Shown here in pieces: positions 782-59,939 of a DNA stretch of 64,000 nucleotides. The notes under the pieces were generated by a model. That model saw nothing but the letters and a program-made list of their open reading frames with translations. It did no database searches and was not told the DNA's origin. Position numbers and translations under genes: made by a program. Location of the stretch: the NCBI GenBank assembly GCA_036389395.1, contig DASVPY010000087.1:1774-65773 (forward strand), read 5' to 3'. Each line of letters starts with the position of its first letter. Position 1 is the stretch's first letter. Origin of the DNA: Pyrinomonadaceae bacterium (lineage in GTDB: Bacteria > Acidobacteriota > Blastocatellia > Pyrinomonadales > Pyrinomonadaceae).

Positions 782-940
782 GCAGTGGGCAGAAGTTAGA
801 AGTCAGTAGTCAGTAGGAAGACAGTTCAAAGTTCAAGGTTCAACGTTGAAGGTCGGCTGCGTGCTCAACCTTGAACGTTGAACCTTGAACAGTTAAACCG
901 TCTTCCTGCTGACTACTGACTACTGGCTTCTGCCTACTGC
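782..940. repeat. Long imperfect palindrome (about 70-nt arms) built from CAGTAGT/CAGAAG and GTTCAAC/GTTCAAG words, between convergent genes
   Basis: The reverse complement of the right arm (867-940) aligns with the left arm (782-852). Arms are tandem 7-nt words. Confidence 0.85.
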
Positions 941-946
941 TTTCCC

Positions 947-1576
947 TCACACCTCGCCGCTCAACTGGTAGACGAGGCGGATGGGGAGGCCGACGACGTT
1001 CCAGAAGTCGCCGTCGAGCGCCTCGATGAAGAGCGCGCCGCGGCCCTGGCCGGCGTACGCGCCGGCCTTGTCGGCCGGCTCGCCGGTCGCCACGTACCAG
1101 TCAACTTCGTCGTCCGACATCGGCGCGAAGCGGACGCGCGTGACGGCGTGCGCCGTCGCCGCCCGCTTCGTCTCGGCGCGCACCAGCGCGACGCCCGTCA
1201 AGACCTCGTGCCAGCGCCCGCGCAGCCGCCGCAACATGCGCCGCGCGTCCTCTTCGTCCGCCGGCTTCGCCAGAATCTCGCCGTCCACCACGACGGTCGT
1301 GTCCGCGCCGAGCACCAGCCCGAACAACCGCCGCGCCGCCACCGCCTCGGCCTTCTCGCGCGCCAGCCGCTCGACGTAGTGCGCCGCGCGCTCGCCCGCG
1401 CGCAGGGTCTCGTCCACGTCCGCCGCCTCCGCCTCGAACGGCCAGCCCACGGCGCGCAGTATCTCCGCCCGGCGCGGACTCCCCGACGCCAGCACGAGCC
1501 GCTCGCGCGCTTCCGGCGCTAACGCCCCCGCCGCGCGCCCGCGCCCTTCAGTTTGTGACGCCCGCTCAGTTTCCAT
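947..1576 (-). CDS. maf: Maf-family nucleoside triphosphate pyrophosphatase (septum formation protein)
   Basis: 209 aa. N-terminal LVLASGSPRRAEIL and C-terminal KAGAYAGQGRGALFIEALDGDFWNVVGLP are Maf hallmarks. Confidence 0.9.
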   Translation of the reverse strand: METERASQTEGRGRAAGALAPEARERLVLASGSPRRAEILRAVGWPFEAEAADVDETLRAGERAAHYVERLAREKAEAVAARRLFGLVLGADTTVVVDGEILAKPADEEDARRMLRRLRGRWHEVLTGVALVRAETKRAATAHAVTRVRFAPMSDDEVDWYVATGEPADKAGAYAGQGRGALFIEALDGDFWNVVGLPIRLVYQLSGEV

Positions 1577-1591
1577 GCTACACTCCCCTCA

Positions 1592-1716: not shown

Positions 1717-1718
1717 AG

Positions 1719-2285: not shown

Positions 2286-2288
2286 ACT

Positions 2289-4193: not shown

Positions 4194-4200
4194 AAGGGAC

Positions 4201-4290
4201 TTAACCGCAAAGGGCGCGAAGCGGGCCGCAAAGGACGCAAAGGTTTTTCTTCGCGCTCTTTGCGGCCCGCTTCGCGCCCTTTGCGGTTAA
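4201..4290. repeat. Perfect 33-bp inverted repeat TTAACCGCAAAGGGCGCGAAGCGGGCCGCAAAG with a 24-nt loop
   Basis: The reverse complement of 4258-4290 is identical to 4201-4233. Sits between convergent gatA and ORF 4312..4716. Confidence 0.9.
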
Positions 4291-4311
4291 ATCCGGGCGC
4301 GCGACCAACCT

Positions 4312-6353: not shown

Positions 6354-6355
6354 TG

Positions 6356-6460
6356 ACAGGTGACAAGTGACAGGATAAAGCTTTTACTCGTCACCTGTCA
6401 CCCGTCACGGTTTACGGCTTTTCTCCTGTCACCTGTCACCCGTCACCCGTCACGGCTTTT
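6356..6460. repeat. GTCACCC/GTCACCT heptamer element (short hairpin plus a direct repeat ending CACGGCTTTT)
   Basis: gacaggtgacaagtgacagg pairs with cgtcacctgtcacccgtcac. A second cctgtcacctgtcacccgtcacccgtcacggctttt follows. Confidence 0.8.
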
Positions 6461-9383: not shown

Positions 9384-9489
9384 GTGGCTGGTAAACTCTC
9401 TTCAGTCTGGGATGCGTTAGCGCGGCGATATTAACGCGCCGCCCGCGCCCGACTCAAATCCGCGCCGCCGTTCGGGAGGAGGAGTTGTT

Positions 9490-9738
9490 GTGAAGGAAGA
9501 GTTCGGAGACGTGCGGGACGAGTTTCGAGACGACGTGTCGGACGGGCCGCGCGGGGGCGCGTGCCCGCGTTGCGGCGCGGCGCGGCTGCGCGCGTGGGCG
9601 GAGTTGACGGAAGCGGAGCGCGAGGTCGTGCGCCGCCTGCCGGCCTCGGCCGACGCGCCGCTCGCCGAGCGCGCCGCCGGCCGCCGCTGGTGCACACGCT
9701 GCTGGCACGAAGCGGCCGACGCGCCGCGAACAGCTTAA
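9490..9738 (+). CDS. Small putative zinc-ribbon protein
   Basis: GTG at 9490 follows GGGAGGAGGAG. CPRCG...CTRCW cysteine pairs. 82 aa. Confidence 0.4.
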   Translation: MKEEFGDVRDEFRDDVSDGPRGGACPRCGAARLRAWAELTEAEREVVRRLPASADAPLAERAAGRRWCTRCWHEAADAPRTA

Positions 9739-9773
9739 GAGTGGTCGGGGGTTTGCGGTAACGCGCGGCCGGT

Positions 9774-9824
9774 GGAGACACAGAGGGCACAGTAAAGACT
9801 CTGTGTCTCCTCTGTGCCCCTGTG
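9774..9824. repeat. CACAGAGG-family hairpin with a CACAG-TAAAGACT-CTGTG core
   Basis: ggagacacagagggcacag / ctgtgtctcctctgtgcccctgtg. Confidence 0.8.
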
Positions 9825-9977
9825 TTGATCTTTCCGCCGGCTAGACTCAACCGCAAGACGATCTAAGGCTGGTAGTGGTTTAGAAATTCGTCCACGGTGT
9901 AGAGCGTGCCGCGCGGGCCGTAGCCCATCCAGTAGTCGGCCGCTTGGCGCGGTACCTAGCAGCCTGCACCCGGCTTC

Positions 9978-14251: not shown

Positions 14252-14330
14252 GGCGCGTCTATCTTACGCGCCCGGCGCGCGCCGATGCCAGAGGCACGCG
14301 GACGGAAGATGACAGACCCGCTGCCTCTGC

Positions 14331-14421
14331 GTCCTTTGCGGCGCTGCTTGGCGGCCTTTGCGGTTAAGTCTTAAAGCTCTAACCGCAAAGGTCGCAGAGA
14401 GGGCCGCGAAGGCCGCGAAGG
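14331..14421. repeat. CCGCAAAGG-family palindrome with a GCGGTTAAG...CTAACCGC core
   Basis: cctttgcggcgctgcttggcggcctttgcggttaag / ctaaccgcaaaggtcgcagagagggccgcgaaggccgcgaagg. Confidence 0.8.
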
Positions 14422-14440
14422 GTTGAGCCGGATCGTCGTG

Positions 14441-14534
14441 CTAGAAGCCATCTCATAAATATGTGCCGCCTGCTTTTGAGCCAATGTTTATGCGCCTTTC
14501 AGAAACCAAAAGGTATTTATGAGATGGCTTCTAG
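14441..14534. repeat. AT-rich 94-bp element with perfect 21-bp terminal inverted repeats (MITE-like or structured RNA)
   Basis: ctagaagccatctcataaata (14441-14461) is the exact reverse complement of 14514-14534. Interior is 52 nt. No target-site duplication seen. Confidence 0.7.
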
Positions 14535-14563
14535 TAATTTTCAGGCGGCGGCTTGAAAAATAC

Positions 14564-14592
14564 TTGCAAGGCGGGGTGAAACTGAATATAGT
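14564..14592 (+). promoter_or_regulatory. Near-consensus sigma70-type promoter TTGCAA-N17-TATAGT facing the S8 peptidase gene
   Basis: TTGCAA at 14564-14569, 17-nt spacer, TATAGT at 14587-14592. It would give a leader of about 300 nt before the ATG at 14907. Confidence 0.4.
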
Positions 14593-14906
14593 GCCGGCCT
14601 CACCGGACGCGGTCGGCTGTTGGGGCAGTCCTTGCGACCTTGCGTCCGCCCCGTTTTGCATTCATCTCTAACGACTTGAGTTAAGGCCGCGGACAGACCG
14701 GGCGGGACGGCGGCGGAGCCGTCCTGCCGGGTCGGTCTCGGAGACAGGGCGGCGCGTCCTTCTGCGACGCGCGCCCGAGCGGCCGCTCTGCGGGTTCCCT
14801 TTATGACCGGCTCTCCTACCTTCCGCGCGGGGCGTGTGTCATGCCGACGGGCGTGCCGCCGCCCCGCGTTCGCTGTCAACTCCTCAAGACACTTACAGGA
14901 GGCCCA

Positions 14907-16220: not shown

Positions 16221-17354
16221 TTATGCTATGCCGTACGGAGAAACGAAGCCGTCGCAATAACATCCCGGCACATGGCAATAAACTGTATCCCCGTCTTCCT
16301 CATCCTCCGCCTCCGAGTGCATACGTTCTATATGATCACAACGCACGCACCGCAATAGGCCTTCAGCTTCCTCTTCAGATCGGACGCGCGACAGGTCTTC
16401 TCTATATGGTTCATGTTTAGGCACTGCCGTCACGCCTACGTAGGTCACATTCGGGCCTCGATACTCAATGAACTGCCGCGAAGTTGCCTGCGGCAGCCCG
16501 ATGAGGTTGATATCAAACTTCAGAGAAGGCTCGACCCGTGAACTAGCGTTATGAATGCGAAAGGAGACTTGCCAACCTTGATCGAAGTACATCATAAGCG
16601 TCGTTTGCGAGTCGGGCTTCAGGGATATTTCAACAATCCGCGTCGGCATGCGCAGCCTAGTGCCCCAAAGCAGCGTCCCATCAATGTTGAATGACGTGAC
16701 CGAAACCGTACCGTTCTCTTTAATAACCTTGTAGTAGTCAAACCGGCCGAGAAGGTATTTAACCAACGCCTTCGGGACTATCTGCGGTTCCCGCGCGAAC
16801 AGATGCTGCATTTCGGTTTGAAACGCCTGAATGATTGGCATGTAATATCGCTGTTTCTTATCTAATATCCCGCTCCATCTCTCACCTTGCTCCTTGCGCC
16901 GACGGAGTTCATCAAAGATTGGCGAAACCCGGTTAAAGTAGTCGGCTGAACAAGGCACACCTAGCCAGTCGGCGCCAAAATCGATCCGCCCCGAGAGCCG
17001 GGAGTGTTTGACAGCGAAATGGCGATTCTTAGCAGAGATACCGACATCCGCGTTCAGCGCGCTGTTGTGAACGACGATGTCACGCACGTCACCCTGCTTA
17101 CCTAGCTGATCAGATTGCAGGTATACGGAGCACCCTTTCTCTGACAGGCGCTTGTCATGAGCGATGAGAAATAAAGCGGCTTCGTCTGCGGCGGCGTTGA
17201 TGTGCTGCTGCTCATTGACGGAACACGCCCGATAGCACCGCTGGGCCGTTAGCAGGGTCGGACTGGCTCGGAGAGGTGCTGGCAGGTGACGTGAGAGGCT
17301 TGAGGCAAGGCCGTACTCGAAGGCCCTGCCGGAGTCATTCTGTGAGAGTGTCAT
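16221..17354 (-). CDS. Putative type II restriction endonuclease (family and specificity not assigned) with a Cys/His-rich C-terminal tail
   Basis: Overlaps the upstream methylase stop by 4 bp (ATGA). Low GC. Possible PD-(D/E)XK-like GDVRDIVV...GISAKNRHFAVKH. Tail is CVRCDHIERMH...CHVPGCYC. Confidence 0.55.
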   Translation of the reverse strand: MTLSQNDSGRAFEYGLASSLSRHLPAPLRASPTLLTAQRCYRACSVNEQQHINAAADEAALFLIAHDKRLSEKGCSVYLQSDQLGKQGDVRDIVVHNSALNADVGISAKNRHFAVKHSRLSGRIDFGADWLGVPCSADYFNRVSPIFDELRRRKEQGERWSGILDKKQRYYMPIIQAFQTEMQHLFAREPQIVPKALVKYLLGRFDYYKVIKENGTVSVTSFNIDGTLLWGTRLRMPTRIVEISLKPDSQTTLMMYFDQGWQVSFRIHNASSRVEPSLKFDINLIGLPQATSRQFIEYRGPNVTYVGVTAVPKHEPYREDLSRVRSEEEAEGLLRCVRCDHIERMHSEAEDEEDGDTVYCHVPGCYCDGFVSPYGIA

Positions 17355-18226
17355 GCGGCTAAGTTTACATCAGGGCTTGCGATCAAAACCTCTTTCGACT
17401 GCTTGTTCTTGGACATGCCATATATCCATTCAATGGAGACGATGGTTTTATCCTTGTAAAGCTCCCTGACTTCCGGGCAATCGTTGTAAGACATAATCCA
17501 TCGGTCGCGCTTGTGCAGTAAGTCGGCGAGCGCTTCATGGTCGAATGATTTATGCGTGTCCCCCTTAACGCCGTATAGCCCCTGACCATTCAGGTAGGGC
17601 GGGTCTAAGTACAGAAAGGCGTCTTCGTGTTTGGGGATAACTTCCCTGTAGTCGGCGTTCTCGACATGGAAATTATCCACCTTAAAAGATTTGATCCGTT
17701 CAATAGCCGACTGGGTGAAGCGTGGGTGGCCTGGGGACATACCGCCGGACAACGTGGTGCCGGAGAACGATGAGCGGTTTAGGACGAAAAAGGCTGCCGC
17801 TCGCTCAACTTCATCAGTGAGATGGATGAAACGCTTCTGAAGATTATAAAATTGAGTCCTTGTCAATGAATGCAAGTATGGCTCGACGCGGCGGGCGAGC
17901 ATTTCTGGGTCTCTAAGTAGCACGCGCCAGAAGGCGACAAGCGGCTCGAAAATATCCGCGCCGTAAACTTCCATCTTCGTCGTGCAGGCTAGTTCGATAG
18001 AACCGCCTCCCAAAAAGGGCGAGCAAAGTTTTTTCTCGTCCGAAGGGATTTGGGCGAAGATCAACTTAGTGATGGCCTTGACGGCGCGATTCTTTCCGCC
18101 TGGATATCTCAAAGGGGAGCGAGGAAATTTTTGAGGGAATTCCACAATCCTGTCCGAGCCTGAATCCGCTTGCCGGACGAGCACCTGACTCGGATCGATC
18201 ATGTTAGCGAAACTCTGCTGACTCAT
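17351..18226 (-). CDS. Dam-family (D12 class, alpha-type) N6-adenine DNA methyltransferase
   Basis: 291 aa. N-terminal LRYPGGKNR (AdoMet motif) followed by LYLDPPY (DPPY catalytic motif). Low GC. Confidence 0.85.
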   Translation of the reverse strand: MSQQSFANMIDPSQVLVRQADSGSDRIVEFPQKFPRSPLRYPGGKNRAVKAITKLIFAQIPSDEKKLCSPFLGGGSIELACTTKMEVYGADIFEPLVAFWRVLLRDPEMLARRVEPYLHSLTRTQFYNLQKRFIHLTDEVERAAAFFVLNRSSFSGTTLSGGMSPGHPRFTQSAIERIKSFKVDNFHVENADYREVIPKHEDAFLYLDPPYLNGQGLYGVKGDTHKSFDHEALADLLHKRDRWIMSYNDCPEVRELYKDKTIVSIEWIYGMSKNKQSKEVLIASPDVNLAA

Positions 18227-19841: not shown

Positions 19842-19974
19842 GATCTCTCCTGAAAGTTGTATTTGGGAGTGTGGGGTCTGCGTGCCGCCCTAATCTGGCG
19901 GGGGCGGCGGCGGTCGGCGTGCGGGCAATGCTTGGGCGGCGTCATCAAACTCACTGCGCCACTAAAAAGCTCGC

Positions 19975-20002
19975 ATTATAGAGAGCCGGGGCGGGCTGTC
20001 AA
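19975..20002 (-). promoter_or_regulatory. Perfect-consensus sigma70 promoter TTGACA-N16-TATAAT directed at glnA
   Basis: The minus strand reads ttgacagcccgccccggctctctataat. -35 at 20002-19997, -10 at 19980-19975. Leader of about 125 nt to the glnA ATG (19841). Confidence 0.6.
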
Positions 20003-20255
20003 GGTTTCACGCGCGGCGCACGGGGCGGGAGGCGCGGCGCGCGCGGCTAAGTCGTTCGCAGGCGTCGGCTTACCCGCCGCGGCGCGGGCGAAAAAAGTTA
20101 TAGACCGGGGCGGCGCTTTTTTGTTACATTGCACGCCTTAGTTTTTCCAACCTGAAACTTGACCATGACGACAGCCGAGCGCGTGCCGCGGCCGACCGAC
20201 CGAGGCGGGCGCGTACAGCGGGCACCGGACGGAGACAAGGGGAGCGAAGCGGAAG

Positions 20256-22202
20256 TTGACCACGGCCATCGAACAGACGCTTGAGACCTACGGCATAGAA
20301 AACTGGGGGGCCGGGTACTTCGGCATCAACCGCAAAGGGAACCTCATCGTGCACCCGTCCGAGGCCGACACCAAGGCGGCGGCGGACGTGAAAGAGATCA
20401 TAGACGACTTGCAGCGGCGCGGCATTTCGACGCCGGTGCTGCTGCGCTTCCCGCAACTCGTCACCGCGCAGGTGCGCAAGCTCCAGCGCGCCTTCCGCAA
20501 CGCCATCCGCGAGTTCGACTACCAGGGGTCGCACATGTGCGTCTACCCGATGAAGGTCAACCAGCAGCGCGCGGTCGTCGAGGAGTACCTGCGCGAAGGC
20601 GCGCGCTACGACTTCGGCCTCGAAGCCGGCTCGAAGGCCGAACTCTACGCGGCGCTCGCCTTGGAACAGTCGCCCGACTCTTTGCTCGTGCTCAACGGCT
20701 TCAAGGACGAGGAGTTCATCGAGCTGGCGTTCACGGGCGCGCGCGCGGGCAAGCGCGTCATCATCGTGATCGAGAAGATGTCGGAGTTGGGTCACGTCCT
20801 GCGCATCGCCGAGGAGTTGGCGGACGAAGGGGCGGGCGGCGACCTGCCGATGCTCGGCATCCGCGTCAAGCTCTACTCTAAAGGCTCCGGGCGCTGGGAA
20901 AAATCCGGCGGCGAGGCGGCGAAGTTCGGGCTGACGACGACCGAGATTCTCGAAGTCATCCACCGCTTGCAGGAGGCCGGGCGCATCGAGCTTTTGCGCC
21001 TGCTGCACTTCCATATCGGCTCGCAGCTCACCGACATCAAGCGCATCAAGAACGCGATGAAGGAGGCCGCGCGCGTCTACGCCAAGATTTACCAGATGAA
21101 GGTGCCGATTGACCTGTTGGACGTGGGCGGCGGCATGGCCGTTGACTACGACGGCTCGAAGACGGCCTTCGACTCCTCGGCCAACTACAACGCGCAGGAG
21201 TTCGCCAACGACGTTATCTACACGATCAAGCAGGTCTGCGACGACGAGAATGTGCCGCACCCGACCGTCATCCAGGAGTCCGGCCGCTTCCTCTCCGCCT
21301 ACCACGCCATCCTCGTCACCAACGTGCAGGAGGAGATCGAGACGGTCGTCGAGGACACGCACCAGCCCATCAAGCTCGACGACGACGACCCGCAGGTCGT
21401 GACCGAACTCTACGATCTGCGCGAGACCATCGGGCCGAAGAACTACCGCGAGTACTACCACGACGCGCTCGAACACCGCGAGGAGTTGTTCACGCTCTTC
21501 AACCTCGGCCTCATCTCGCTCGAAGACCGGGCCAAGGGCGAGGTCTTGTTCTGGGACGTGTGCGAGCGCGCCGACCGCTTCGCGCAGGCCGCCGAGTACG
21601 TCTCCGAGGAGTTCGACGATCTGCGCCGGCTGTCGCGCGCGAAGTATTTGACCAACTTCTCGGTCTTCCGCTCCGCGCCGGATCACTGGGCGCTCGATCA
21701 GCTCTTCCCCATCGTGCCGATCCACCGGCTCAACAAGCCGCCGACCGCCTACGCCACGCTCTGCGACATCACCTGCGACTCGGACGGCGTGGTGGACAAG
21801 TTCGTCGATCTGCACGACGTGAAGCAGGTCTTGGAGTTGCACCCGCTCAACGCCGGCGAGCCGTACTACCTCGCCTTCATGCTCGTCGGCGCGTACCAGG
21901 AGGTGATGGGCAACAACCACAACCTCTTCGGCACGCCGCACGAGGCGCACATCCACATAGACGAGGACGGCTACCTGATCAAGAAGGTCATCCGCGGCAT
22001 GACGGTCGGCGAGGCGGTCGAGAGCGCGCGCTACGAGCGCGGGCAGTTGCACGACAGCTTCCGCCGTCAGGTCGCGCAGCGCGTCAAGCGCGGCGAGCTG
22101 ACCGAGGCGGAAGCCGCCCGCCTCGTCGAGTTCTACGAGTCACGCATCAGCGCCTACACGTACCTGTCGGTCAACGGGCAGCAGAAAAGCCGTAAACCGT
22201 GA
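20256..22202 (+). CDS. speA: Biosynthetic arginine decarboxylase
   Basis: 648 aa, TTG start. YGIENWGAGYFGINRKGNLIVHP N-terminus. PLP-fold decarboxylase pattern throughout. Confidence 0.9.
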   Translation: MTTAIEQTLETYGIENWGAGYFGINRKGNLIVHPSEADTKAAADVKEIIDDLQRRGISTPVLLRFPQLVTAQVRKLQRAFRNAIREFDYQGSHMCVYPMKVNQQRAVVEEYLREGARYDFGLEAGSKAELYAALALEQSPDSLLVLNGFKDEEFIELAFTGARAGKRVIIVIEKMSELGHVLRIAEELADEGAGGDLPMLGIRVKLYSKGSGRWEKSGGEAAKFGLTTTEILEVIHRLQEAGRIELLRLLHFHIGSQLTDIKRIKNAMKEAARVYAKIYQMKVPIDLLDVGGGMAVDYDGSKTAFDSSANYNAQEFANDVIYTIKQVCDDENVPHPTVIQESGRFLSAYHAILVTNVQEEIETVVEDTHQPIKLDDDDPQVVTELYDLRETIGPKNYREYYHDALEHREELFTLFNLGLISLEDRAKGEVLFWDVCERADRFAQAAEYVSEEFDDLRRLSRAKYLTNFSVFRSAPDHWALDQLFPIVPIHRLNKPPTAYATLCDITCDSDGVVDKFVDLHDVKQVLELHPLNAGEPYYLAFMLVGAYQEVMGNNHNLFGTPHEAHIHIDEDGYLIKKVIRGMTVGEAVESARYERGQLHDSFRRQVAQRVKRGELTEAEAARLVEFYESRISAYTYLSVNGQQKSRKP

Positions 22203-22363
22203 CGGGTGACAGGTGACGAGATGAAACCAGACATCAGGAGTCAGAAGCCGGCAGCCAGCAGCCAGAAGATAATGCGCCGGCCGTGCTCTTACATTGTGGC
22301 TTCCGGCTTCCGGCTTCCGGCTTCCGGCTTCATCTCGTCCCCTGTCGCCTGTCACCCGTCACG
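22197..22363. repeat. Composite nested palindrome: outer GTCACC arms enclosing inner CAGAAGCC / GGCTTCC arms
   Basis: ccgtgacgggtgacaggtgacgagatgaa ... ttcatctcgtcccctgtcgcctgtcacccgtcacg. Inner arms: ggagtcagaagccggcagccagcagccagaag versus ggcttccggcttccggcttccggcttc. Confidence 0.85.
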
Positions 22364-22372
22364 CCAAAACAT

Positions 22373-23438: not shown

Positions 23439-23578
23439 GCAGTGGTCAGTGGGAAGACAGTTCAACGTTCAACGTTCAAGGTTCAAGGTTAGCTGCGCCT
23501 TGAACCTTGAACCTTGAACTTTGAACGTTGAACTCTTAACTGACCACTGCCCACTGACCACCGACCACTGACCACTGC
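23439..23578. repeat. Palindrome of CAGTGGT and GTTCAAC/GTTCAAG words (same architecture as 782-940)
   Basis: gcagtggtcagtgggaagacagttcaacgttcaacgttcaaggttcaagg ... ccttgaaccttgaaccttgaactttgaacgttgaac...ccactgaccactgc. Confidence 0.85.
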
Positions 23579-25841: not shown

Positions 25842-25842
25842 G

Positions 25843-26123
25843 GCAGTAGGCAGAAGCCAGAAGCCAGAAGCCAGAAGCCGGTCGCGCGGTACTCGTTTTA
25901 TCGAGTGCCGCGCGACCGGCTTCTTTTCTGACCTCTAGCTCAGTTTGCGGTTGCCTGTGCCCGAAGGCCATTTCAACACAGAGGACACAGAGGGGGCACA
26001 GAGGACACAGTTAAGAACTCTGTGTACTCTGTGTCTCCTCTGTGTCCTCTGTGTGAGACCGGCCAACCGTTACAGTCAACCACCGCCCGTCTGAGCTTCT
26101 GACTCCTGACTCCTGACTCCTGC
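25843..26123. repeat. Composite element: outer CAGAAGCC x4 / CTGACTCC x3 arms enclosing a terminator hairpin and a CACAGAGG palindrome (25975-26054)
   Basis: ggcagtaggcagaagccagaagccagaagccagaagcc at 25843-25880 is complementary in word type to gcttctgactcctgactcctgactcctgc at 26094-26123. Confidence 0.75.
25874..25927 (+). terminator. Rho-independent terminator after the LTD-protein gene
   Basis: 22-bp stem gaagccggtcgcgcggtactcg / cgagtgccgcgcgaccggcttc (one G-U pair), loop tttta, then ttttc. Confidence 0.7.
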
Positions 26124-26124
26124 T

Positions 26125-28831: not shown

Positions 28832-28902
28832 TCAAGCACCTCGCACTCAAGAAGTGGCTAATTCCCTTTTGCCCTCTTCGCGCCGTTTGCGGTTAAGGCT
28901 TG

Positions 28903-30543: not shown

Positions 30544-30545
30544 CG

Positions 30546-30639
30546 TCTTTGCGGCCCTTTGCTCTCTTTGCGTCCTTTGCGGTTAAGGCCGAAAACTTTA
30601 ACCGCAAAGGACGCGAAGCGGGCCGCAGAGGACGCGAAG
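30546..30639. repeat. CCGCAAAGG-family palindrome with a GCGGTTAAGG...TTTAACCGC core
   Basis: tctttgcggccctttgctctctttgcgtcctttgcggttaagg / tttaaccgcaaaggacgcgaagcgggccgcagaggacgcgaag. Confidence 0.85.
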
Positions 30640-30796
30640 TATGATACGCCCGCCACGCGCCGCCCGTCAGGTGGAGTGTTACTGCTGCACCCCGGCGCGG
30701 AGATAAAACGAGAGGGTCGCCGGCCCGGCTATAGCTCCGGGGCGGCGACCCTCGCGGCAGAACGTTTGGGGTCGGGGAGTTTCGGCTCGCGCCGTG

Positions 30797-33111: not shown

Positions 33112-33212
33112 GTTCAAAGTTCAACGTTCAACGTTCAAAGTCGGGCGTTGAACCTTGAACCTTGAACTTTGAACCTTGAACTTTTACTGACCTCTGACCT
33201 CTAACCTCTGCC
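33112..33212. repeat. GTTCAAC/GTTCAAG palindrome followed by CTGACCT words
   Basis: gttcaaagttcaacgttcaacgttcaaag / cgttgaaccttgaaccttgaactttgaaccttgaac, then ctgacctctgacctctaacctctgcc. Confidence 0.85.
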
Positions 33213-33717: not shown

Positions 33718-33857
33718 GGGAGGAAGGACTGAGGAGTCAGGAGCCAGGAGCCAGAAGCCGGAAGCCGGAAGGAGGAATGCGGACGAGCGCCCGCCTTCTT
33801 CCCTTCTGGCTTCTGGCTCCTGACTCCTGGCTCCTGTTCTTATTTCTCCCTCATCCC
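33711..33857. repeat. Palindrome of CAGGAGC/CAGAAGCC/GGAAGCC words; outer arms GGGATGAGGGAGG / CCCTCATCCC
   Basis: The left arm starts inside the ppiB stop region. The right arm ends at ...ttatttctccctcatccc. Confidence 0.85.
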
Positions 33858-36747: not shown

Positions 36748-36857
36748 GTTGAGTGCAGCGGGAGAAAGATCAACACAGAGGACACAGAGTTCTTACTGTG
36801 TCCTCTGTGTGACCTCTGTGCCTTCTGCGTTAAAAACGGCCGCTCGTTACTCTCAAC
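36748..36857. repeat. CACAGAGG palindrome (core CACAGAGTTCTTACTGTG) with outer GTTGAG.../...CTCTCAAC arms
   Basis: gttgagtgcagcg...caacacagaggacacagagttcttactgtgtcctctgtgtgacctctgtg...cgctcgttactctcaac. Confidence 0.8.
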
Positions 36858-38751: not shown

Positions 38752-39020
38752 CCGTGACGGGTGACAGGTGACAAGGGACAGGAGAATTCTAGCCCGTCAC
38801 TTGTCACTTGTCACCTGCTACGGCTCTTTGGTAGTGGTTCGGTTTGAGGTCGCAGGTGGCGAAGGCTCAGTTCAACACAGAGGACACAGAGGTCACACAG
38901 AGGACACAGAGAGTCTTACTGTGCCCTCTGTGCTAACTCTGTGTCCTCTGTGTTAAAACGGCCGCGCGTGACTCTCAACCTGAAACTGATCTACTACCAA
39001 CTCTTTCCTGTCACCCGTCA
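38752..39020. repeat. Composite spacer: GTCACC hairpin (38752-38818) plus CACAGAGG palindrome (38842-38980) inside outer TTGGTAGTGG / CTACTACCAA arms
   Basis: Core cacagagagtcttactgtg. Ends with cctgtcacccgtcaaggctttt, similar to the end of 6356-6460. Confidence 0.8.
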
Positions 39021-42062: not shown

Positions 42063-42158
42063 TCTCCGTGCCCCTCTGTGTCCTCTGTGTCTCTGTGGTG
42101 CATGATGCCGCAGCAAAATTCACCACAGAGACACAGAGGGCATAGAGGGGCACGGAGA
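42063..42158. repeat. CACAGAGG-subfamily palindrome with a CTGTGGTG...ATTCACCACAG core (38-nt arms, about 3 mismatches)
   Basis: tctccgtgcccctctgtgtcctctgtgtctctgtggtg / caccacagagacacagagggcatagaggggcacggaga. Confidence 0.85.
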
Positions 42159-44622: not shown

Positions 44623-44670
44623 GGTAGCAGAAGAGGAGACGGGAGTCAGGAGCCGGAAGACAGAAGAAGG
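44623..44670. repeat. Half-element (left-arm type) GGAGACGGGAGTCAGGAGCCGGAAGACAGAAGAAGG
   Basis: No partner arm in the same spacer. It is complementary (22 of 25 nt in the core) to 46795-46819, on the far side of the DUF885 gene. Confidence 0.7.
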
Positions 44671-44777
44671 AAAGACCCGAAGCTGCGTGTTCATACTCTG
44701 TCGCGAGAACCGGCACTTGGTTATAATCCTCGCCTTCACGTTGTGCCAGTAAGTTGGTCAGGTCAGTCTGTGAAGCT

Positions 44778-46766
<1,989 letters not shown>

Positions 46767-46787
<21 letters not shown>

Positions 46788-46819
46788 CCACTGCCTTCTG
46801 GCTTCTGACTCCTGTCTCC
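46767..46819. repeat. Half-element (right-arm type): CCACTG words plus CCTTCTGGCTTCTGACTCCTGTCTCC
   Basis: Encodes the last 8 codons of the DUF885 gene (YWPLPTDH*). Complementary to 44634-44670. Confidence 0.7.
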
Positions 46820-46833
46820 TATAAACTTCCCCC

Positions 46834-48195: not shown

Positions 48196-48302
48196 CGCGC
48201 GGCTCGAAGCCCCGCACCGCAGTTCCGTCAGGAGCGGTATGTTTGTAGCTCACGGCATGACCTAAAGTCCGCAAGCTCCGTCAGGAGCGAAATGTTGGTA
48301 AC

Positions 48303-49367
48303 GTGCAACAGACGACAGACGACAGAGTGACGCCGCCGGCCGCCGATGCAGCGGCGCAGCCTGACGCGGCCGCGCCGCCGGCCGTCGCGCCGTCGCAGAC
48401 TGCTGCGTCCACGTCGCCGCTCGTCTTGCAAGACGTGGAGGAGCCGCGCGCCGACGGTCGCTACCGGCTCGAAGAACTGCTCGCCTATCACGACCGCGCC
48501 TTCGTCTCCTATGCCTACGCCGCGCTCGGCGACCGCCCGCCGACCGAAGCCGAATACGCCGCGACGCTCGCAGACCTGCGCTCGGGCCGGCGCGGCAAGG
48601 TCGAGATCATAGAGGCTCTGTGCGCGGCGGGCGCGCGCGCGCGCGTCGCGGGGTTGCCGTCGCCGCTGGCGCGCCGCCTGGCGCGTCTGCCCGTCGTCGG
48701 GCGCGTCGTGCGGCTCGTGCGCGCGCTCCTGCGCGTGCCACTGCTCGTCGAGCACCAGCAGCGGTTCGAGGCTTACGCGCTCGCGCAGCAGCAGCGCATC
48801 GCCGACCACCTGAACCAGACCTGCGCCGCGCTCAACCGCGCCTGCGCGGAGATTAGTCAAGCCCACGCCGACACCGTGCAAGTCCGCGCCGAGATCAACC
48901 AGGCGCTCGTTGACTTAGGCGAAGCACTCGCCATGCGCGCCGAGGAACTGGTCACGCTCGCCGCGGCGGTCGAGGCCGTGCAGGACGAGTTGCGGCACGG
49001 GCTGACCGGCGTGCAGCACGAACAGACCGGACTGTGGGACGAGTTGAGCGGCGCGCAGGACAGGCTGGCCGGCGTGCAACATAATCTGACGGCTGTGCAG
49101 GACAGGCTGACGGGCGTGCAGGACGAGTTGACCGACGTGCGGCGCGAGTTGAGCGGGCACGAAGGCTTTCTCGTGCAGGAGCAGCAGGTGCTCGTCGAGA
49201 CGCAGAAGGTCGTGCTCGACGATCTGCAAGAGCAGTTGCGCGCAGCGGACGCGCGCCACGACGAGGCGCACGCCGCGCTCGCGGCCGAAGTGGCGGCCCT
49301 GCGCGCCCTCGTCGCACAACTGCGCGGCGCTGCGCCGGACGAGGCGGCCGAAGGCGAGCAGGCATGA
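48303..49367 (+). CDS. DUF4214-like domain plus heptad coiled-coil protein
   Basis: GTG start. N-terminal FVSYAYAALGDRPPTEAEYAATLADLRSGRRGKVEIIEAL. Eight tandem heptads: LTGVQHE QTGLWDE LSGAQDR LAGVQHN LTAVQDR LTGVQDE LTDVRRE LSGHEGF. Confidence 0.7.
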   Translation: MQQTTDDRVTPPAADAAAQPDAAAPPAVAPSQTAASTSPLVLQDVEEPRADGRYRLEELLAYHDRAFVSYAYAALGDRPPTEAEYAATLADLRSGRRGKVEIIEALCAAGARARVAGLPSPLARRLARLPVVGRVVRLVRALLRVPLLVEHQQRFEAYALAQQQRIADHLNQTCAALNRACAEISQAHADTVQVRAEINQALVDLGEALAMRAEELVTLAAAVEAVQDELRHGLTGVQHEQTGLWDELSGAQDRLAGVQHNLTAVQDRLTGVQDELTDVRRELSGHEGFLVQEQQVLVETQKVVLDDLQEQLRAADARHDEAHAALAAEVAALRALVAQLRGAAPDEAAEGEQA

Positions 49368-52805: not shown

Positions 52806-52903
52806 TCTTTGCGCTCCTTTGCGGCCCTCTTTGCGCCCTTTGCGGTTAAAGCTTTAAGACCTAACCGCAAAGGTCGCCAAGCGGGCCGCAAAGGAGCGCA
52901 AAG
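52806..52903. repeat. CCGCAAAGG-family palindrome with a GCGGTTAAAG...CTAACCGC core
   Basis: ctctttgcgctcctttgcggccctctttgcgccctttgcggttaaag / ctaaccgcaaaggtcgccaagcgggccgcaaaggagcgcaaag. Confidence 0.85.
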
Positions 52904-52928
52904 AAAATAAGGTCTTAAAGGAACCGCG

Positions 52929-53885: not shown

Positions 53886-53970
53886 TTAACACAGAGTACA
53901 CAGAGGTCACACAGAGGCCACGGTAAGAAACTCTGTGCCCTCTGTGTCTCCTCTGTGTCCTCTGTGTTAA
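53886..53970. repeat. CACAGAGG palindrome bounded by TTAACACAGAG / CTCTGTGTTAA, core GGTAAGAAACTC
   Basis: ttaacacagagtacacagaggtcacacagaggccacggtaagaaactctgtgccctctgtgtctcctctgtgtcctctgtgttaa. Confidence 0.85.
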
Positions 53971-56911: not shown

Positions 56912-59809
56912 GACGACGGCCCCCTTGCGCGCCGCCGTCGCCGCATAACGCATCTCGACTTTGTGTCGTCCGGCCGGCAGCGCCACGCCCCGCAGCAAGT
57001 AGTCCGTCAACAGGATCGGCCGCGCCGCTCCGTCCACACGCGCCTCCCAGCCCGGATAGAACAACTCACTCACGACCAAGACCGTCGGCGTCTGCGCCTC
57101 CGTCTCGATACTCAAACGCGTCGCCTCGTAGCTCACGACGCGCGCCGTCTGCGGCACGGCCGTCTGCGACGCCGAAGGTTGACCGAGCAAAGCAGGTAGC
57201 TCGTCGGGGCGCACTTCAAGCAGCGCGGTGCGCGCCGGGTCGAATGCGTCCGCGCCCTCGCCGCGGATGCGGCGCAACGCCTCTTCGCCGTCCACCGCCT
57301 CGGCCGCGGTGACGAGCCAGGCGCGGGGCTGGGCGCGCGTGTTGCGGAGGACGAGGATGCCGTCGAAGTCGGCGGCGGACTGCCAGCGTGTGGGATCGGG
57401 TGTGGCGCGCGCGGGGTCGCGCGTGAGCGGCGCGGACTGCGCGCTGCCGGCGTCGTACAGGCTCGCCTTCCAGACGACGAGCGCGGCCGTCTGCGCGACG
57501 TTGCTGATCTCGACGCGGCTGACCCGGCCGCGCCAGCCGAACGCCAGCCGCGCCCAGTAGCGGTGCGCCGCGTAGCCGCCCGTCTCGGCCACCGTGCGGC
57601 TGTCGAAGACGGGCGCGAGTTGATGCTTAATGTTGGCCCGCACGTCCGCGCGCTCGTGCGCCCACTCGGCCGTCTCCACCCCGGCGCGCAGTTCGCGCTC
57701 GACTCGACCGCCGTCCTCCATGAAGACGCGCACGCGCCCCACCGTTTCGCCCTGGGCCACGCCGACCGAGTTGGCCAAAGACGTGACGAGGGCGAGCGTG
57801 CCGGCGGGCGCTGCCGCGGCGGCGAGCGTCGCGGTCGCGCCGGGCGGGAGTTCGATGCCGAGTTCGGCTTGGTCGAGGCCGACGCCTTCGTGCTGTTCGA
57901 GTTGCGCGGCGGGTTGTTGGAACGCTTCGCGGAAGGCGACGACGTGCGTGACGTTGAGCAGATCGAGCACGCGCGCCTCCGGGCCCGTAAAGATGCGCGG
58001 CGGCGCGACGCCTGCGCGCGGGCGCACCGCGTCGTAGTCCACGTCGCCGAGCGCGCGGCTGTAGCGCGTGAGCAGCAGTTGCTCGTAGCCGGCGGCGTTG
58101 TGCAAGCCGTAGGGCGCGGTCTGCGCGAGCACGTCGAAGCGCGGCGCGGCGGCGTTCTCGTCCAGCCCCAGGTTCGCCTGCACGAAGACGCGCCCTTCGG
58201 CGGGCGGGAACTGTTGCAGGTAGCGCGTGGCCGCGCCCGGCGTCGTGAAGCGCGCGCCGGGCTTCGCCGTGCCCGGCCACCACTGCGCGATCAGGATCAG
58301 CGGCTCGGTCATGCAGCCGACGAACAGGGCGCACAGCAACAACGCCGCGCGCACGCGCCCCGCCGCCGCGCGCCGCAGCAGCCACAGGCCGGCACACAAC
58401 GGCACGAAGCTAATGAGTTTCCAACAGACGTAAGCGCGCGTCGTGCCGACCGTCAGACCGAACGGCGCGGCGCGCGCGACCGCGAGCCACCAGAGCACGC
58501 CGACCGTCGCGCTCAACGCGACGAGCAGCGCGGCGTAGCTCAGTCGTCCGCGTGCGGTCGTCGCGTCTCGCGCGTGTGCGCTCAGGGCGTCCCAGCCGTA
58601 GGCGGCGAGGGCGGCGAGGGCGAACGTCCAGACGAAGGCGAGGCGCGAGGGGACGCGGAACAGGTTCAGGACGGGCACGCGGTAGGCGAAGCGGTAGACC
58701 GGCGTGTGCTCGCCGAGCATGAAGACGAAAGCGCAGCCGGCCGCGGCGAGCCAGAAGAGGGCGCGCGGGTCTGGCTCCTTACGCCGGAGCGCGCGCGCGG
58801 CGGCGTAGAGCGCGAGCGCGAGTGCTAACGGCACGACGTAGGTCGTCACGTCTATGTAGTGGTAGAGCGGCGCGAGCGCCGACAGCAAGGCTTCGCGCGG
58901 CGTGAACGAACCCTGGCTGAAGAACTCGTAAGTGATCTCGTGCCGGATGCTGCGCCGCGCCGCGCGCCACGTCTCGAAGAGTTGAAAGCCGGCCACGCAC
59001 GCGCCCAGCGCCAGCCCGCACGCCGCGACGAACGCCGGCCGCCAACGCGCCAGCCTGTGCCGATTGAACACGCGCGAGCTTTCGCGCCCGCGCAAGTTTT
59101 CATGCTCGCTCGTGCCGTCCTTCGCAGATGCGTCTGTCTCTTCCGTCTGCGCCGGCACGAGGGCGAGGAAGAGTGCGTAAGCCACGCCGACGAGCGCGAC
59201 GAGCAGGAAGCTTTGGGCGTGGCCCGTCAGGACGGAGAGCGCGTAAAACCCGCCCGCGCCGGCCACGCAAGCCGAGAGCCGACGCGTGCGCGCGCGCTCA
59301 AGGGCGACGAGGAGGAGCGGCAGCCACGTCATCGCGTTCGTCGGGATGCCGTTCATGCCGAGCGCGTTCGTCGTCAGCCCGCCGTAAGCGAAGGCGAGAC
59401 CGGCGAGCAGCGCGGCGAGTCGGCTCCGCCCCAGCTCGCGCAGGTACGCGTAGGTGAATACGGGCATCAGCAGGAACGGCGCGAGGACGTAGAGTTCTTC
59501 GGCCCAGTGGTCGGGCAGGAAGAGGTGCCCCCAGGTGAGCGGGTAACCGAGACCGAGTTGCGCCATCGCGAGCAGCGGGTAGCCGGAGAGCACGTAAGGC
59601 GTCCAGGTGGGCGGCACGCCCGCGCGGATCATGCGCCACGCGACGGTGCGCATCGGGTAGGTGTAGAAGAACACGTCGCCGCCGATCAGGAAGCGACCGC
59701 TGAGGAGCGCCCAGCCGAACGCCGCACCGAACGCGAGCGCGCACACACCCAGCGCACACGCGTCCACGCGCCGCCGCCGCCACACGTCTCCTAAACGCGC
59801 CGCCCGCAC
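56828..59809 (-). CDS. YfhO-like membrane protein, paralog 2
   Basis: 993 aa. GGDVFFYTYPMRTVAWRMIRAGVPPTWTPYVLSGYPLL. C-terminal FYPGWEARVDGAARPILLTDYLLRGVALPAGRHKVEMRY. Its 3' end overlaps paralog 1 by 84 bp. Confidence 0.7.
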   Translation of the reverse strand: MRAARLGDVWRRRRVDACALGVCALAFGAAFGWALLSGRFLIGGDVFFYTYPMRTVAWRMIRAGVPPTWTPYVLSGYPLLAMAQLGLGYPLTWGHLFLPDHWAEELYVLAPFLLMPVFTYAYLRELGRSRLAALLAGLAFAYGGLTTNALGMNGIPTNAMTWLPLLLVALERARTRRLSACVAGAGGFYALSVLTGHAQSFLLVALVGVAYALFLALVPAQTEETDASAKDGTSEHENLRGRESSRVFNRHRLARWRPAFVAACGLALGACVAGFQLFETWRAARRSIRHEITYEFFSQGSFTPREALLSALAPLYHYIDVTTYVVPLALALALYAAARALRRKEPDPRALFWLAAAGCAFVFMLGEHTPVYRFAYRVPVLNLFRVPSRLAFVWTFALAALAAYGWDALSAHARDATTARGRLSYAALLVALSATVGVLWWLAVARAAPFGLTVGTTRAYVCWKLISFVPLCAGLWLLRRAAAGRVRAALLLCALFVGCMTEPLILIAQWWPGTAKPGARFTTPGAATRYLQQFPPAEGRVFVQANLGLDENAAAPRFDVLAQTAPYGLHNAAGYEQLLLTRYSRALGDVDYDAVRPRAGVAPPRIFTGPEARVLDLLNVTHVVAFREAFQQPAAQLEQHEGVGLDQAELGIELPPGATATLAAAAAPAGTLALVTSLANSVGVAQGETVGRVRVFMEDGGRVERELRAGVETAEWAHERADVRANIKHQLAPVFDSRTVAETGGYAAHRYWARLAFGWRGRVSRVEISNVAQTAALVVWKASLYDAGSAQSAPLTRDPARATPDPTRWQSAADFDGILVLRNTRAQPRAWLVTAAEAVDGEEALRRIRGEGADAFDPARTALLEVRPDELPALLGQPSASQTAVPQTARVVSYEATRLSIETEAQTPTVLVVSELFYPGWEARVDGAARPILLTDYLLRGVALPAGRHKVEMRYAATAARKGAVVSVLAVVSLLGLAVYGRRSERVGGEQEE

Positions 59810-59841
59810 CCTCTTCTCCGCTCCGTGCCTGATTCGGCTGG

Positions 59842-59939
59842 CCTCCGTGCGTCCTCTGTGTGCTCTGTGCCTCTGTGGTGAATGCTGTTGAACCTTAATT
59901 CACCACAGAGGCACAGAGCACACAGAGGACGCACGGAGG
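59842..59939. repeat. Perfect 42-bp inverted repeat (CACAGAGG subfamily, CTGTGGTGAAT...ATTCACCACAG core) with a 14-nt loop
   Basis: The reverse complement of 59898-59939 is identical to 59842-59883 (cctccgtgcgtcctctgtgtgctctgtgcctctgtggtgaat). Confidence 0.9.

Follow-up and report, generated by a model that had tools for sequence, protein, structure and literature searches.

Genes and word-built elements in the window

The DNA analyzed here is a 64-kb stretch (64,000 nt, hereafter the window) from an uncultured Blastocatellia member (Acidobacteriota) of the family Pyrinomonadaceae. Its intergenic spacers contain elements built from short tandem words, most of them arranged as two complementary arms. 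Two kinds of element coexist, inverted pairs of heptamer arrays and palindromes that resemble repetitive extragenic palindromic (REP) sequences and MITEs (miniature inverted-repeat transposable elements). They are not one family, and they do not form a new kind of system. The elements are non-coding and typical of this Pyrinomonadaceae lineage.

The genes of the window form an ordinary chromosomal set by Pfam. They include ahpC-like, maf, dciA, gatCA, M14 peptidase, glnE and S8 peptidase genes, followed by glnA, speA, the deoxyhypusine synthase (DHS) gene, a gene for a GGDEF-EAL protein, thiD/thiE, and a polysaccharide cluster with Wzy, Wzt, glycosyltransferases and YfhO-like proteins. The window has 68% G+C and is 90.6% coding, with 6,047 nt of intergenic DNA. 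In agreement with the original prediction, which was made from the sequence alone, Pfam scans of the window genes detected no transposase and no Y1 or REP-associated tyrosine transposase (RAYT) domain. No tRNA or tmRNA was found in the window. The window matches a 397-kb metagenome contig of the Joint Genome Institute (JGI), Ga0334913_000009. Its GatA carries the label Pyrinomonadaceae in NCBI, and the best species-level GatA matches among those listed are Pyrinomonadaceae metagenome-assembled genomes (MAGs) with 68-78% identity. For comparison we used three closer relatives, L163, L164 and L165, which are contigs from other samples. Their GatA proteins are 89, 86 and 85% identical to that of the window, and they retain the gene order of window positions 1-20 kb. 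The listed genes of the relatives' loci (about 55 kb) include no transposase, and those of L001 and L163-L165 no RAYT gene.

Ungapped inverted repeats in the window were compared with those in six dinucleotide shuffles. At a score of at least 18, 17 were found in the window and none in any shuffle; at a score of at least 14, the window has 24 and the shuffles have 0-2. All 17 top hairpins lie within or overlap spacers, none is internal to a gene, and 16 are word-built. Word-built elements are present at 23 of the 43 gene junctions, corresponding to 23 of the 34 spacers of at least 40 nt, which bears out the predicted number of at least 23 element-bearing spacers. Twenty are complete hairpins and three are single arms. 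Together they occupy about 2.65 kb of the intergenic DNA, at a density of about one per 2.5 kb, and they extend upstream of the window in L001. Minimum free energy (MFE) z-scores of -4 or below, ranging from -4 to -15.6, were obtained for 19 of the 33 spacers that were folded. The elements are about equally frequent at convergent (5/9), divergent (4/8) and co-directional (14/26) junctions.

The word structure is apparent in the periodicity of the spacers. At lags of 7, 14 and 21, the self-match of intergenic DNA amounts to 0.378, 0.332 and 0.319, respectively, over a baseline of about 0.27; coding DNA displays period 3 only. Tandem Repeats Finder (TRF) identified about 30 arrays of period 7, 14 or 21 in the spacers, the 14- and 21-nt periods being of higher order. 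Every word named in the original prediction, which described the arms as arrays of short words, was located.

Heptamer-array hairpins and REP/MITE-like palindromes

Families A to D are inverted pairs of heptamer arrays. Their words are CAGRAGY/CAGTRGY, in general form TCAGNNN (family A), GTTCAAS (B), GTGACRG (C) and GATTGCG (D). The arms pair at 0.88-0.97 in register and at 0.77-0.96 when slid by 7 or 14 nt. Because they pair almost equally well when slid, we refer to them as 'slippery' hairpins. A mirror order of word variants was considered as a general rule and rejected, since in-register pairing of the heptamer arms is barely better than pairing after a 7-nt slide; only in composite elements and the 9-mer families is such a symmetry evident. 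Arm lengths overall are 21-82 nt.

Families E, F and G are palindromes that measure about 100-170 nt; their stems have a period of 8-11 nt, and each family has its own loops and flanks. They pair in a single register (0.89-1.00, falling to 0.4-0.8 when slid). Family E has CACAGAGG words and a GTAAGA loop, family F has CTTTGCGG/GCGAAG words and a GGTTAA signature, and family G has CCTCTGTG/TCTCCGTG words and a GGTGAAT loop. The loop cores that had been proposed to unite these subfamilies were recovered. CACAG-TAAGA-CTGTG aligns at about 9789, 26007, 36783, 38907 and 53922, GCGGTTAA is found at 14356, 30575 and 52838, with a further inside-out copy at 4212/4279, and CTGTGGTGMAT is found at 42093 and 59873. 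Family E copies also align over a common flank of about 35 nt, CAGTTTGCGGTTGAG.GT.ACG.GCGGCCGTTTTAAC. They occur in both orientations, and a copy with the same flank is present in L165. The common flank and the two orientations indicate that family E behaves like dispersed REP/MITE-like repeats.

Among the family A elements, E3 (2181-2283) is a CAGGAGT/CAGAAGC hairpin between dciA and gatC. Its arms are 94% complementary, and the 5' arm lies within the 3' end of dciA. E4 (2587-2728), a CAGAAGC/CAGAAGT hairpin, fills the spacer between gatC and gatA, starting 1 nt past the gatC stop and ending 4 nt ahead of the gatA ATG. Its loop contains a GAATGAAAAG module and a TCTTCTT run. TCAGCNN hairpins occupy this slot in relatives. 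E3's right arm is 91% complementary to the left arm of E4, and these two arms bracket gatC. A family A loop module, CAGAAGCC[AG]GAATGAAAAG[AC]TG, is found in E3 (2203-2225), in E4 (2616-2640) and at the non-orthologous position L163:6787 (L163:6779-6805). Its ATG opens short Phe/Leu/Ser-rich open reading frames (ORFs) that run through the 3' arm. The idea that these tiny ORFs from the ATGAAAAG loop module encode type I toxins was rejected, since the orthologous copy at L001:6522 has lost the ATG and the peptides show no conservation. E17 (33725-33836) is a CAGGAGC/CAGAAGC hairpin after the cyclophilin gene (spacer z=-10.3).

Single arms were observed around the DUF885 gene. E22 (44632-44663) is a 5'-type arm, GGAGACGGGAGTCAGGAGCCGGAAGACAGAAG, and its complement is 2.1 kb off, beyond this gene. 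E23 (46762-46820) consists of 3'-type arms, 4.6 copies of ACTGACC followed by CTTCTGGCTTCTGACTCCTG, and overlaps the last 26 nt of the gene. The family A arms at 44632-44663 and 46789-46820 are complementary at 27 of 32 positions and flank the DUF885 gene (44754-46787) in its entirety. Either the gene has split one hairpin, or there is long-range pairing between the two arms.

In family B, E16 (33093-33210) is a GTTCAAS hairpin followed by CTGACCT words. Its 5' arm starts within the 3' end of a HAD-hydrolase gene. In family C, E6 (6354-6458) is a TGACAGG/GTCACCY hairpin with an extra GTCACCC array (z=-4.0). Its 5' end adjoins the start of a 167-aa gene; the same junction has TCAGC words in L163 and GATTGCG words in L164. 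E19 (38754-38814), a GTGACRG/GTCACTT hairpin, contains a -35/-10-like GTGACA-17-TAGAAT on the minus strand. Immediately ahead of the next minus-strand gene, the family C words at 6372-6401 and 38786-38814 (both minus strand) contain a -35-like GTGACA, and the loop has a -10-like TATCCT or TAGAAT. In a tandem array, such -35 boxes would be available in 7-nt steps. Family D is represented by E2 (1586-1722), in the divergent spacer between maf and dciA. About five copies each of GATTGCG and CCGCAAT surround a centre of 58-63 nt, the arms are 97% complementary, and the right arm stops 4 nt short of the dciA ATG. The same words are present in the orthologous spacer of L164 and L165.

Several elements are nested. 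E1 (781-941) fills the convergent spacer between the ahpC-like gene and maf, with outer family A words (CAGTGG/CAGAAGT/CAGTAGT) around inner family B words (GTTCAAS). Its 49-nt arms are 86% complementary, and the spacer z-score is -12.4. E11 (23439-23578) has the same arrangement, with outer CAGTGGT/ACTGACC, inner GTTCAAS and 32-nt inner arms that are 97% complementary. The two can be aligned, as expected from the modular CAGTGG plus GTTCAA composite predicted at both places. E10 (22199-22362), between speA and the DHS gene, has family C words (GTGACRG) outside family A words (CAGRAGC/GGCTTCC) and 59-nt arms. The compound element E12+E13 (25842-26124) has 5.7 copies of CAGAAGC (25840-25879) and 3.4 copies of CTGACTC (26099-26122) as outer arrays. 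In E12 the family A arrays surround a GC-rich, terminator-like hairpin (25876-25921) with a 20-bp stem; a family E element (25949-26081) is also enclosed. The z-score of this spacer is -15.6. In L165 (10100-10240), a TCAAATT hairpin is located in the loop of a family E copy.

Among the other family E members, E7 (9745-9855) has CACAGAGG words, a GTAAAGA loop and a GCGGTAACGCGCGGCC flank. It follows a small Zn-ribbon ORF, and L163 has a hairpin of CGCAGAG words in the same slot. E18 (36762-36840) lies in a convergent spacer and scores as terminator-like on the minus strand, E20 (38828-39000) has long outer arms of 82 nt, and E26 (53886-53970) ends 4 nt ahead of the next ATG. In family F, E5 (4197-4294) is an 'inside-out' hairpin, TTAACCGCAAAGG...CCTTTGCGGTTAA, in the convergent spacer after gatA, with 46-nt arms that are 91% complementary. 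E8 (14328-14428) is located upstream of glnE in the divergent spacer between glnE and the S8 peptidase gene and reads CTTTGCGG...GGTTAA loop...CCGCAAAGG/GCGAAG. E15 (30544-30640) and E25 (52806-52904; 43-nt arms, 93% complementary) are further family F hairpins. A single F-type arm, CTCTTCGCGCCGTTTGCGGTTAAGG (28860-28902), has no detectable partner and is unpaired in the family F alignment. Family G comprises E21 (42063-42158), a divergent element 38 nt upstream of a Wzy-like gene with TCTCCGTG/CCTCTGTG words and a GGTGCAT/ATTCACC loop core, and E27 (59842-59939), whose 42-nt arms are 100% complementary.

Orthologous junctions in related genomes

The comparison of orthologous spacers, proposed with the original prediction as a check, was carried out. 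Long hairpins occur at about 3 per 10 kb in the window, L163, L164 and L165 alike. Most of the 145 loci in an outgroup set from other orders and phyla have 0-1 per 21 kb. The relatives have hairpins at the same junctions, indicating that the elements are typical of the genome and not confined to the window.

At four junctions every available relative has a hairpin, made from differing words. Between ahpC and maf, the window has CAGTRG and GTTCAAS, L163 has AGAGGTC, and L164 has CCACCAAG-type 8-mers. Between dciA and gatC, the words are CAGGAGT in the window, TCAGCNN in L163, GTAGGCR in L164 and TTTTCAG in L165. Between gatC and gatA, CAGAAGC in the window corresponds to TCAGCNN in L163 and L164 and to a CAGTA/CTACTGA remnant next to an inserted ORF in L165. 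Between hyp160 and the M14 peptidase gene, GTGACRG corresponds to TCAGC in L163 and GATTGCG in L164. Other junctions retain their words. The GATTGCG words between maf and dciA are the same in L164 and L165, and L163 has related GATTTTC-type words. The F-type element between glnE and the S8 peptidase gene keeps its position and type in L163 and L165, and L164 has a CACGAAG/GGTTAA variant.

Two junctions combine word hairpins with classical terminators. The inside-out family F hairpin after gatA has an orthologous copy in L165, and textbook terminators with an A-tract, GC-stem and T-tract occupy its place in L163 and L164. After the S8 peptidase gene, the window has a plain terminator and L164 has an F-like hairpin. 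In L165 a family E copy that the window lacks adjoins the conserved terminator. Thus slot and pairing are retained while the words are replaced, and classical terminators share the slots of word hairpins.

Around gatCA, heptamer arrays, single or paired, are also present in more distant Pyrinomonadaceae (74-78% identity), which likewise use other words. Individual words of the window are also found farther away. Nostoc minutum (L075) has CTACTGA, CTTCTGA and CTCCTGA, a Terriglobia MAG (L020) has CAGAAGG/T, and GTTCAAS occurs at three loci of Geobacter sp. AOG1 (L061). CTGA was considered as a universal core and rejected, since CTGA/TCAG is merely joint third among 4-mer cores across the 145 unrelated loci.

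The arms have a polarity. For words with a TCAG/CTGA core, TCAGNNN forms the 5' arm and NNNCTGA the 3' arm in 8 of 8 cases by a strict criterion, including cases in Terriglobales (L009) and Acidobacteriaceae (L014). By a looser count, TCA is on the left in 16 cases and TGA in 3. Both in the window and in Geobacter sp. AOG1, GTTCAAS invariably forms the 5' arm. Since a palindrome is identical on both strands, this polarity is intrinsic and not a strand effect. Two general rules for it were rejected. A stop-free 5' arm with TGA in all frames of the 3' arm fits families A and B, fails for family C and the GTAGGC/GTAA words, and is inapplicable to the GGGAATC arrays of Xanthomonas. A purine-rich arm in first position fits families A, C and E and fails for F, G and TTTTCAG.

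Relation of the elements to genes and terminators

The hairpins are closely fitted to gene boundaries. Typically they span from 0-7 nt past a stop codon to 0-10 nt before the next start, as seen at gatC, gatA, dciA, hyp160, DHS and a YfhO-like gene. No Shine-Dalgarno sequence was found outside the stem at these hairpin-abutted genes; other genes of the window have clear ones. Three 5' arms extend into gene 3' ends. Translation of the E3 5' arm (2181-2216) adds a 10-aa C-terminal extension, HQESGARSQKPE, to DciA, which has 165 aa in the window and 155 aa (...DAQEKQ) in L163-L165. Array growth has moved the dciA stop codon. With its GTG start at 22283, the longest DHS ORF takes in the stretch 22283-22372, so that the (GGCTTCC)5 arm of E10 would be translated. 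The Pfam domain is intact from the ATG at 22373, which is probably the true start. The elements thus distort the calling of start codons and ORFs, as for the DHS start and the DciA tail, and automatic calls in this lineage are likely to be misled.

Classical terminator motifs are not enriched (11, 11 and 16 found, 16, 13 and 12 expected from shuffles). Convincing intergenic terminators in the window are present only at 16163, at 25876 within E12, and in E18. The combination of a GC-rich stem, a 3-8-nt loop and a T-run that characterizes Rho-independent terminators is absent from the elements, with the exception of 25876-25921 and E18.

Origin and possible role of the elements

We propose that the elements are non-autonomous palindromic repeats whose arms are remodelled by slippage in 7-nt steps, whose symmetry is maintained by correction or selection, and which form stem-loops, acting or tolerated, at gene boundaries. 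We assign this proposal a probability of about 0.5. It would involve four steps. First, small palindromic modules would be copied into spacers by a process encoded outside the window. Identical loop modules and flanks at non-orthologous loci suggest that modules are copied between loci. Second, the arms would be remodelled in place by replication slippage in steps of 7, 14 and 21 nt. The 14- and 21-nt periods, the pairing of slid arms and the array overrun of the dciA stop (+10 aa) are signatures of slippage. Mismatch repair is inefficient on loops of more than 3 nt (PMC4060949), and slippage loops of 7-21 nt would be poorly seen by it.

Third, strand switching templated by the hairpin (quasipalindrome correction), selection for the stem, or both would keep the arms complementary. 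The turnover of words at orthologous sites with pairing kept suggests that the arms are held complementary. Quasipalindrome correction by template switching is reportedly established in E. coli, through work by Ripley and the Lovett laboratory. Fourth, elements co-transcribed with their neighbours would fold into long stem-loops where genes adjoin. Where a transcription unit ends, they probably contribute to the formation or protection of the 3' end, a role suggested by their presence in slots where relatives have classical intrinsic terminators. In operon junctions, folding would bring the upstream stop and the next start within a few nucleotides, and this juxtaposition could make the elements tolerable or couple the translation of the two genes. 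A genome-wide structural role, also put forward in the original prediction, is possible. The dedicated generating or maintaining mechanism suggested there is not required, because slippage and palindrome correction would be enough; however, the loop modules and flanks shared by non-orthologous loci imply that elements are copied by some process from one locus to another.

Several observations weigh against this proposal. No mobiliser was identified in the window or among the listed genes of the relatives' loci. T-runs are absent from most hairpins, and divergent spacers, in which a terminator would serve little purpose, hold elements just as often. Neutral slippage alone explains neither the 8:0 arm polarity nor the recurrence of the same words in other phyla. 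A signature of the RNA strand was not detected from mismatches or from sense/antisense folding, where the numbers are small: stem mismatches comprise 14 G:T, 10 A:C and 19 others, with no clear G:T excess, and in unidirectional spacers the sense RNA folds better in 3, the antisense RNA in 6, and 4 are tied. Paralogous copies show modest covariation, which affects 2 of 32 pairs for family E and 8 of 35 for family F. The stronger covariation-like evidence is the replacement of whole words at orthologous sites with pairing kept.

The alternatives considered below overlap with the proposal above, and the readings are not mutually exclusive. The elements may be selected mainly as bidirectional terminators or 3'-end protectors, with long stem-loops having replaced the GC-stem and U-tract and the words being a by-product of slippage. 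Word hairpins and classical terminators share orthologous slots, classical terminators are scarce in the window, hairpins begin 0-7 nt past stop codons, E12 and E18 are terminator-like by score, and a palindrome, being the same on both strands, suits convergent genes. However, half of the divergent spacers hold an element (E2, E8 and E21 among them), the elements between gatC and gatA and between dciA and gatC leave no space for a new promoter, T-runs follow few elements, and folding has no sense-strand bias. We consider this explanation unlikely as the main one. The distribution over all spacer orientations agrees with the earlier argument that a terminator role alone is insufficient.

Families E, F and G, and perhaps A, could instead resemble MITEs or REPINs (REP doublets forming hairpins), spreading selfishly after mobilization in trans by a Y1 transposase (RAYT or IS200/IS605-type) or another transposase whose gene lies elsewhere in the genome. 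Flanks and loops conserved at non-orthologous loci in both orientations, the family E copy beside the conserved terminator of L165 that has no counterpart in the window, the nesting in E1, E10, E11 and L165:10100-10240, and the equal frequency in all spacer types would fit such spread. We nevertheless hold it to be rather improbable, as neither the 64-kb window nor the roughly 55 kb of relatives' listed genes contains a transposase, target-site duplications were not seen, a consistent GTAG/CGTC tag is lacking, and many orthologous sites resemble evolution in place and not insertion or excision.

The word arrays could also be lattices of binding sites for a trans-acting protein, with one 7-nt word per protomer, whose binding competes with the hairpin and tunes expression genome-wide. 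The reader could be an IHF/HU-type nucleoid protein on duplex DNA, the kind proposed for G. metallireducens, or a cold-shock/OB-fold protein on single strands. The strict arm polarity is consistent with this, and the Xanthomonas pairs are 'always convergent' (PMC4692102), as head-to-head binding would need. A small vocabulary of words per genome is used at many loci, and words recur in distant phyla (MTYCTGA and GTTCAAS in Geobacter, CTNCTGA in Nostoc, CAGAAG in Terriglobia). The 3' arms adjoin start codons, as do the TAACTGA repeats of Beggiatoaceae, and CspB binds heptamers with one protein per 7 nt, according to a passage in PMC4679880. However, orthologous junctions of close relatives bear quite different words, which is hard to reconcile with a single sequence-specific reader. 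At least seven word families are present in one genome, the CTGA core is just joint third among 4-mers in unrelated loci, and no candidate protein was identified. These points make a reader protein doubtful.

In a more far-reaching form, which we regard as a long shot, the 7-nt words would be a code for a trans-acting factor, with an OB-fold/cold-shock or nucleoid protomer per word and a transition between a closed hairpin and a protein-coated open form. If so, termination, mRNA stability or translational coupling would be set at hundreds of boundaries at once. The 5'-TCAGNNN...NNNCTGA-3' polarity and the words common to Acidobacteriota, Geobacter and cyanobacteria would reflect the reader, and the elements would represent a widespread, so far unrecognised regulatory layer. 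An artefact of metagenome assembly or chimera formation across low-complexity repeats, suggested by the metagenomic source of the contig, can be dismissed, because 21.5 kb around gatA are 100% identical between the JGI contig and a separately assembled contig from the European Nucleotide Archive produced with a different assembler, same-type elements lie at the same junctions in three other samples, and gene order is intact.

Relation to known repeat classes

REP sequences, together with bacterial interspersed mosaic elements (BIMEs) and REPINs, are short intergenic palindromes that occur singly or as inverted pairs in high copy, with proposed roles in termination, mRNA stability and nucleoid-protein binding. 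REPs are 20-40 nt long, have a GTAG/CGTC tag and no internal tandem words, and are linked to a RAYT gene. Like them, the window elements are short, palindromic, abundant and present in every spacer type. Unlike them, they have arms that reach 30-80 nt with tandem words, and no RAYT was found in the window or among the relatives' listed genes. The family E and F alignments have no common GTAG/CGTC terminus, with CGTC in some family F copies at no fixed end. MITEs have terminal inverted repeats, target-site duplications and a related autonomous insertion sequence; families E, F and G have conserved ends and two orientations, with no recognisable target-site duplication. The elements resemble Rho-independent terminators as stem-loops right after stops that are interchangeable at orthologous slots, and E12 embeds one. 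They differ in their far longer stems, the usual lack of a U-tract and their additional occurrence in divergent and operon-internal junctions. They are not CRISPR arrays, which have 24-48-nt direct repeats with unique spacers of comparable length between them; the units here are 7-11 nt, contiguous and in inverted arrays. Rfam 15 gave no match in the window at the gathering threshold, and at E<=0.5 it returned solely sub-threshold eukaryotic miRNA-precursor models, that is, generic long hairpins.

Heptamer arrays are known from cyanobacteria, where Mazel reportedly described them in 1990 as STRR (short tandemly repeated repetitive) sequences. With 5-11-nt head-to-tail units in mostly non-coding DNA, the roughly 30 TRF arrays of the window belong to the long simple-sequence repeats (LSSRs). 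Heptanucleotide arrays are the commonest long simple-sequence repeats in many bacteria and are ascribed to polymerase slippage (Mrazek 2007, as given in a passage of PMC4679880). The hairpins also correspond to inverted heptamer-array pairs of the Xanthomonas/Geobacter type, in which opposite-strand arrays lie close together in a fixed orientation. The original prediction had placed the elements far beyond known repeats, which goes too far, since inverted pairs of tandem heptamers are known in Xanthomonas (PMC4692102) and Geobacter metallireducens (PMC2700814).

In Xanthomonas, GGGAATC occurs 70-75 times per genome as two close opposite-strand arrays that are 'always' convergent (Rehm et al. 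2015, PMC4692102). The position of these arrays is conserved across species, and their length and sequence vary (PMC4692102). The window elements are alike in being intergenic opposite-strand heptamer arrays of fixed orientation and conserved position, with varying length and sequence. However, Xanthomonas uses one G-rich word with G-quadruplex (G4) potential, whereas the window has at least seven non-G4 word families. The density in the window is about 30-fold higher, and its elements are nested, modular and accompanied by REP-like relatives whose loops are conserved.

Opposite-strand pairs of GTTGCTYN, TCTCCGTS[Y] and MTYCTGA number 24, 21 and 8, respectively, in G. metallireducens (Aklujkar et al. 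2009, PMC2700814). Each site consists of 3-5 tandem 7-9-mers, and the spacing of the pairs varies. They were annotated, in classes 1-3, as putative 'global regulator' sites for IHF/HU, and one of the pairs is situated between proB and proA (PMC2700814), an operon-junction placement comparable to that between gatC and gatA in the window. Of these words, MTYCTGA is that of family A, and the outer words of family G resemble TCTCCGTS. The G. metallireducens pairs number about 53 per 4-Mb genome, compared with about 20 per 64 kb in the window, and they are absent from the sister species, whereas the window trait is common to relatives.

Arrays of TAACTGA immediately precede start codons in Beggiatoaceae, cyanobacteria and Bacteroidetes (MacGregor 2015, PMC4679880). 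In BOGUAY the heptamers are nearly all direct arrays, with one inverted set in 170 (PMC4679880). The window resembles these in its spacer arrays and in the NNNCTGA orientation directly upstream of start codons, and Nostoc L075 has the same CTNCTGA words as family A. The Beggiatoaceae and cyanobacterial heptamers are almost always direct arrays, whereas the window has mainly inverted, hairpin-forming pairs.

The window is unusual in how dense its elements are, in how many word families it has and in their nested, modular construction. The literature search returned no account of elements of this type for Acidobacteria. The window is the first case of the inverted heptamer-array class found for Acidobacteriota, an extreme, multi-family and modular variant that is not categorically new. 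Inverted-pair heptamers have been noted in passing in at least two other phyla. This lineage, with its dense elements, several word families per genome, different words at the same junctions and terminator swaps, offers a rich natural experiment. It makes the replacement of intrinsic terminators, translational coupling at operon junctions and the concerted evolution of arms by slippage and palindrome correction testable. The elements will also break or mislead short-read assemblies of Acidobacteriota.

Additional features of the window

Two minus-strand genes at 16221-18226 have a lower third-position G+C and encode a HaeIII-type restriction endonuclease (PF09556) and a D12-class N6-adenine methyltransferase (PF02086), an odd pairing. 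In L164 and L165, glnA directly follows the S8 peptidase gene, indicating that the restriction-modification pair is an inserted island in the window genome.

The region between glnE and the S8 peptidase gene contains two further features. Perfect 21-nt inverted repeats, CTAGAAGCCATCTCATAAATA ... TATTTATGAGATGGCTTCTAG, surround 52 nt at 14441-14534 and are not word-built. They lie in a stretch of about 130 nt that is absent from the otherwise alignable L163 spacer, and look like a separate MITE-like insertion. At 14540-14840, upstream of the S8 peptidase gene, a conserved leader of about 250 nt comes after a promoter-like TTGCAA-17-TATAGT. Counterparts in L163 (20880-21256), L164 (19690-20042) and L165 (8450-8796) can be aligned by eye, and those of the relatives end in AGGAGGCCCA-ATG. 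Rfam has no match in this leader, which from its conservation may be a regulatory leader.

An apparent 594-nt spacer contains an 82-aa ORF on the plus strand (9490-9738) with CxxC...CxxC motifs. This ORF is also conserved in L163, and Pfam gives no match for it; a minus-strand ORF that competes with it (9431-9856) is probably spurious. At 48196-48302, upstream of the gene at 48303-49367, there are two copies of a direct repeat, CCGCA(G/A)(T/G)(T/C)TCCGTCAGGAGCG(G/A)(T/A)ATGTT(T/G)GTA, about 55 nt apart. It is neither word-built nor palindromic. The divergent spacer between glnA and speA (19842-20255, compared with L165:11683-12103) is free of elements and highly conserved, including GTTATAGACCGG...TTTTTTGTTACATTGCAC. 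The long spacers without elements may be those already occupied by conserved regulatory sequence.

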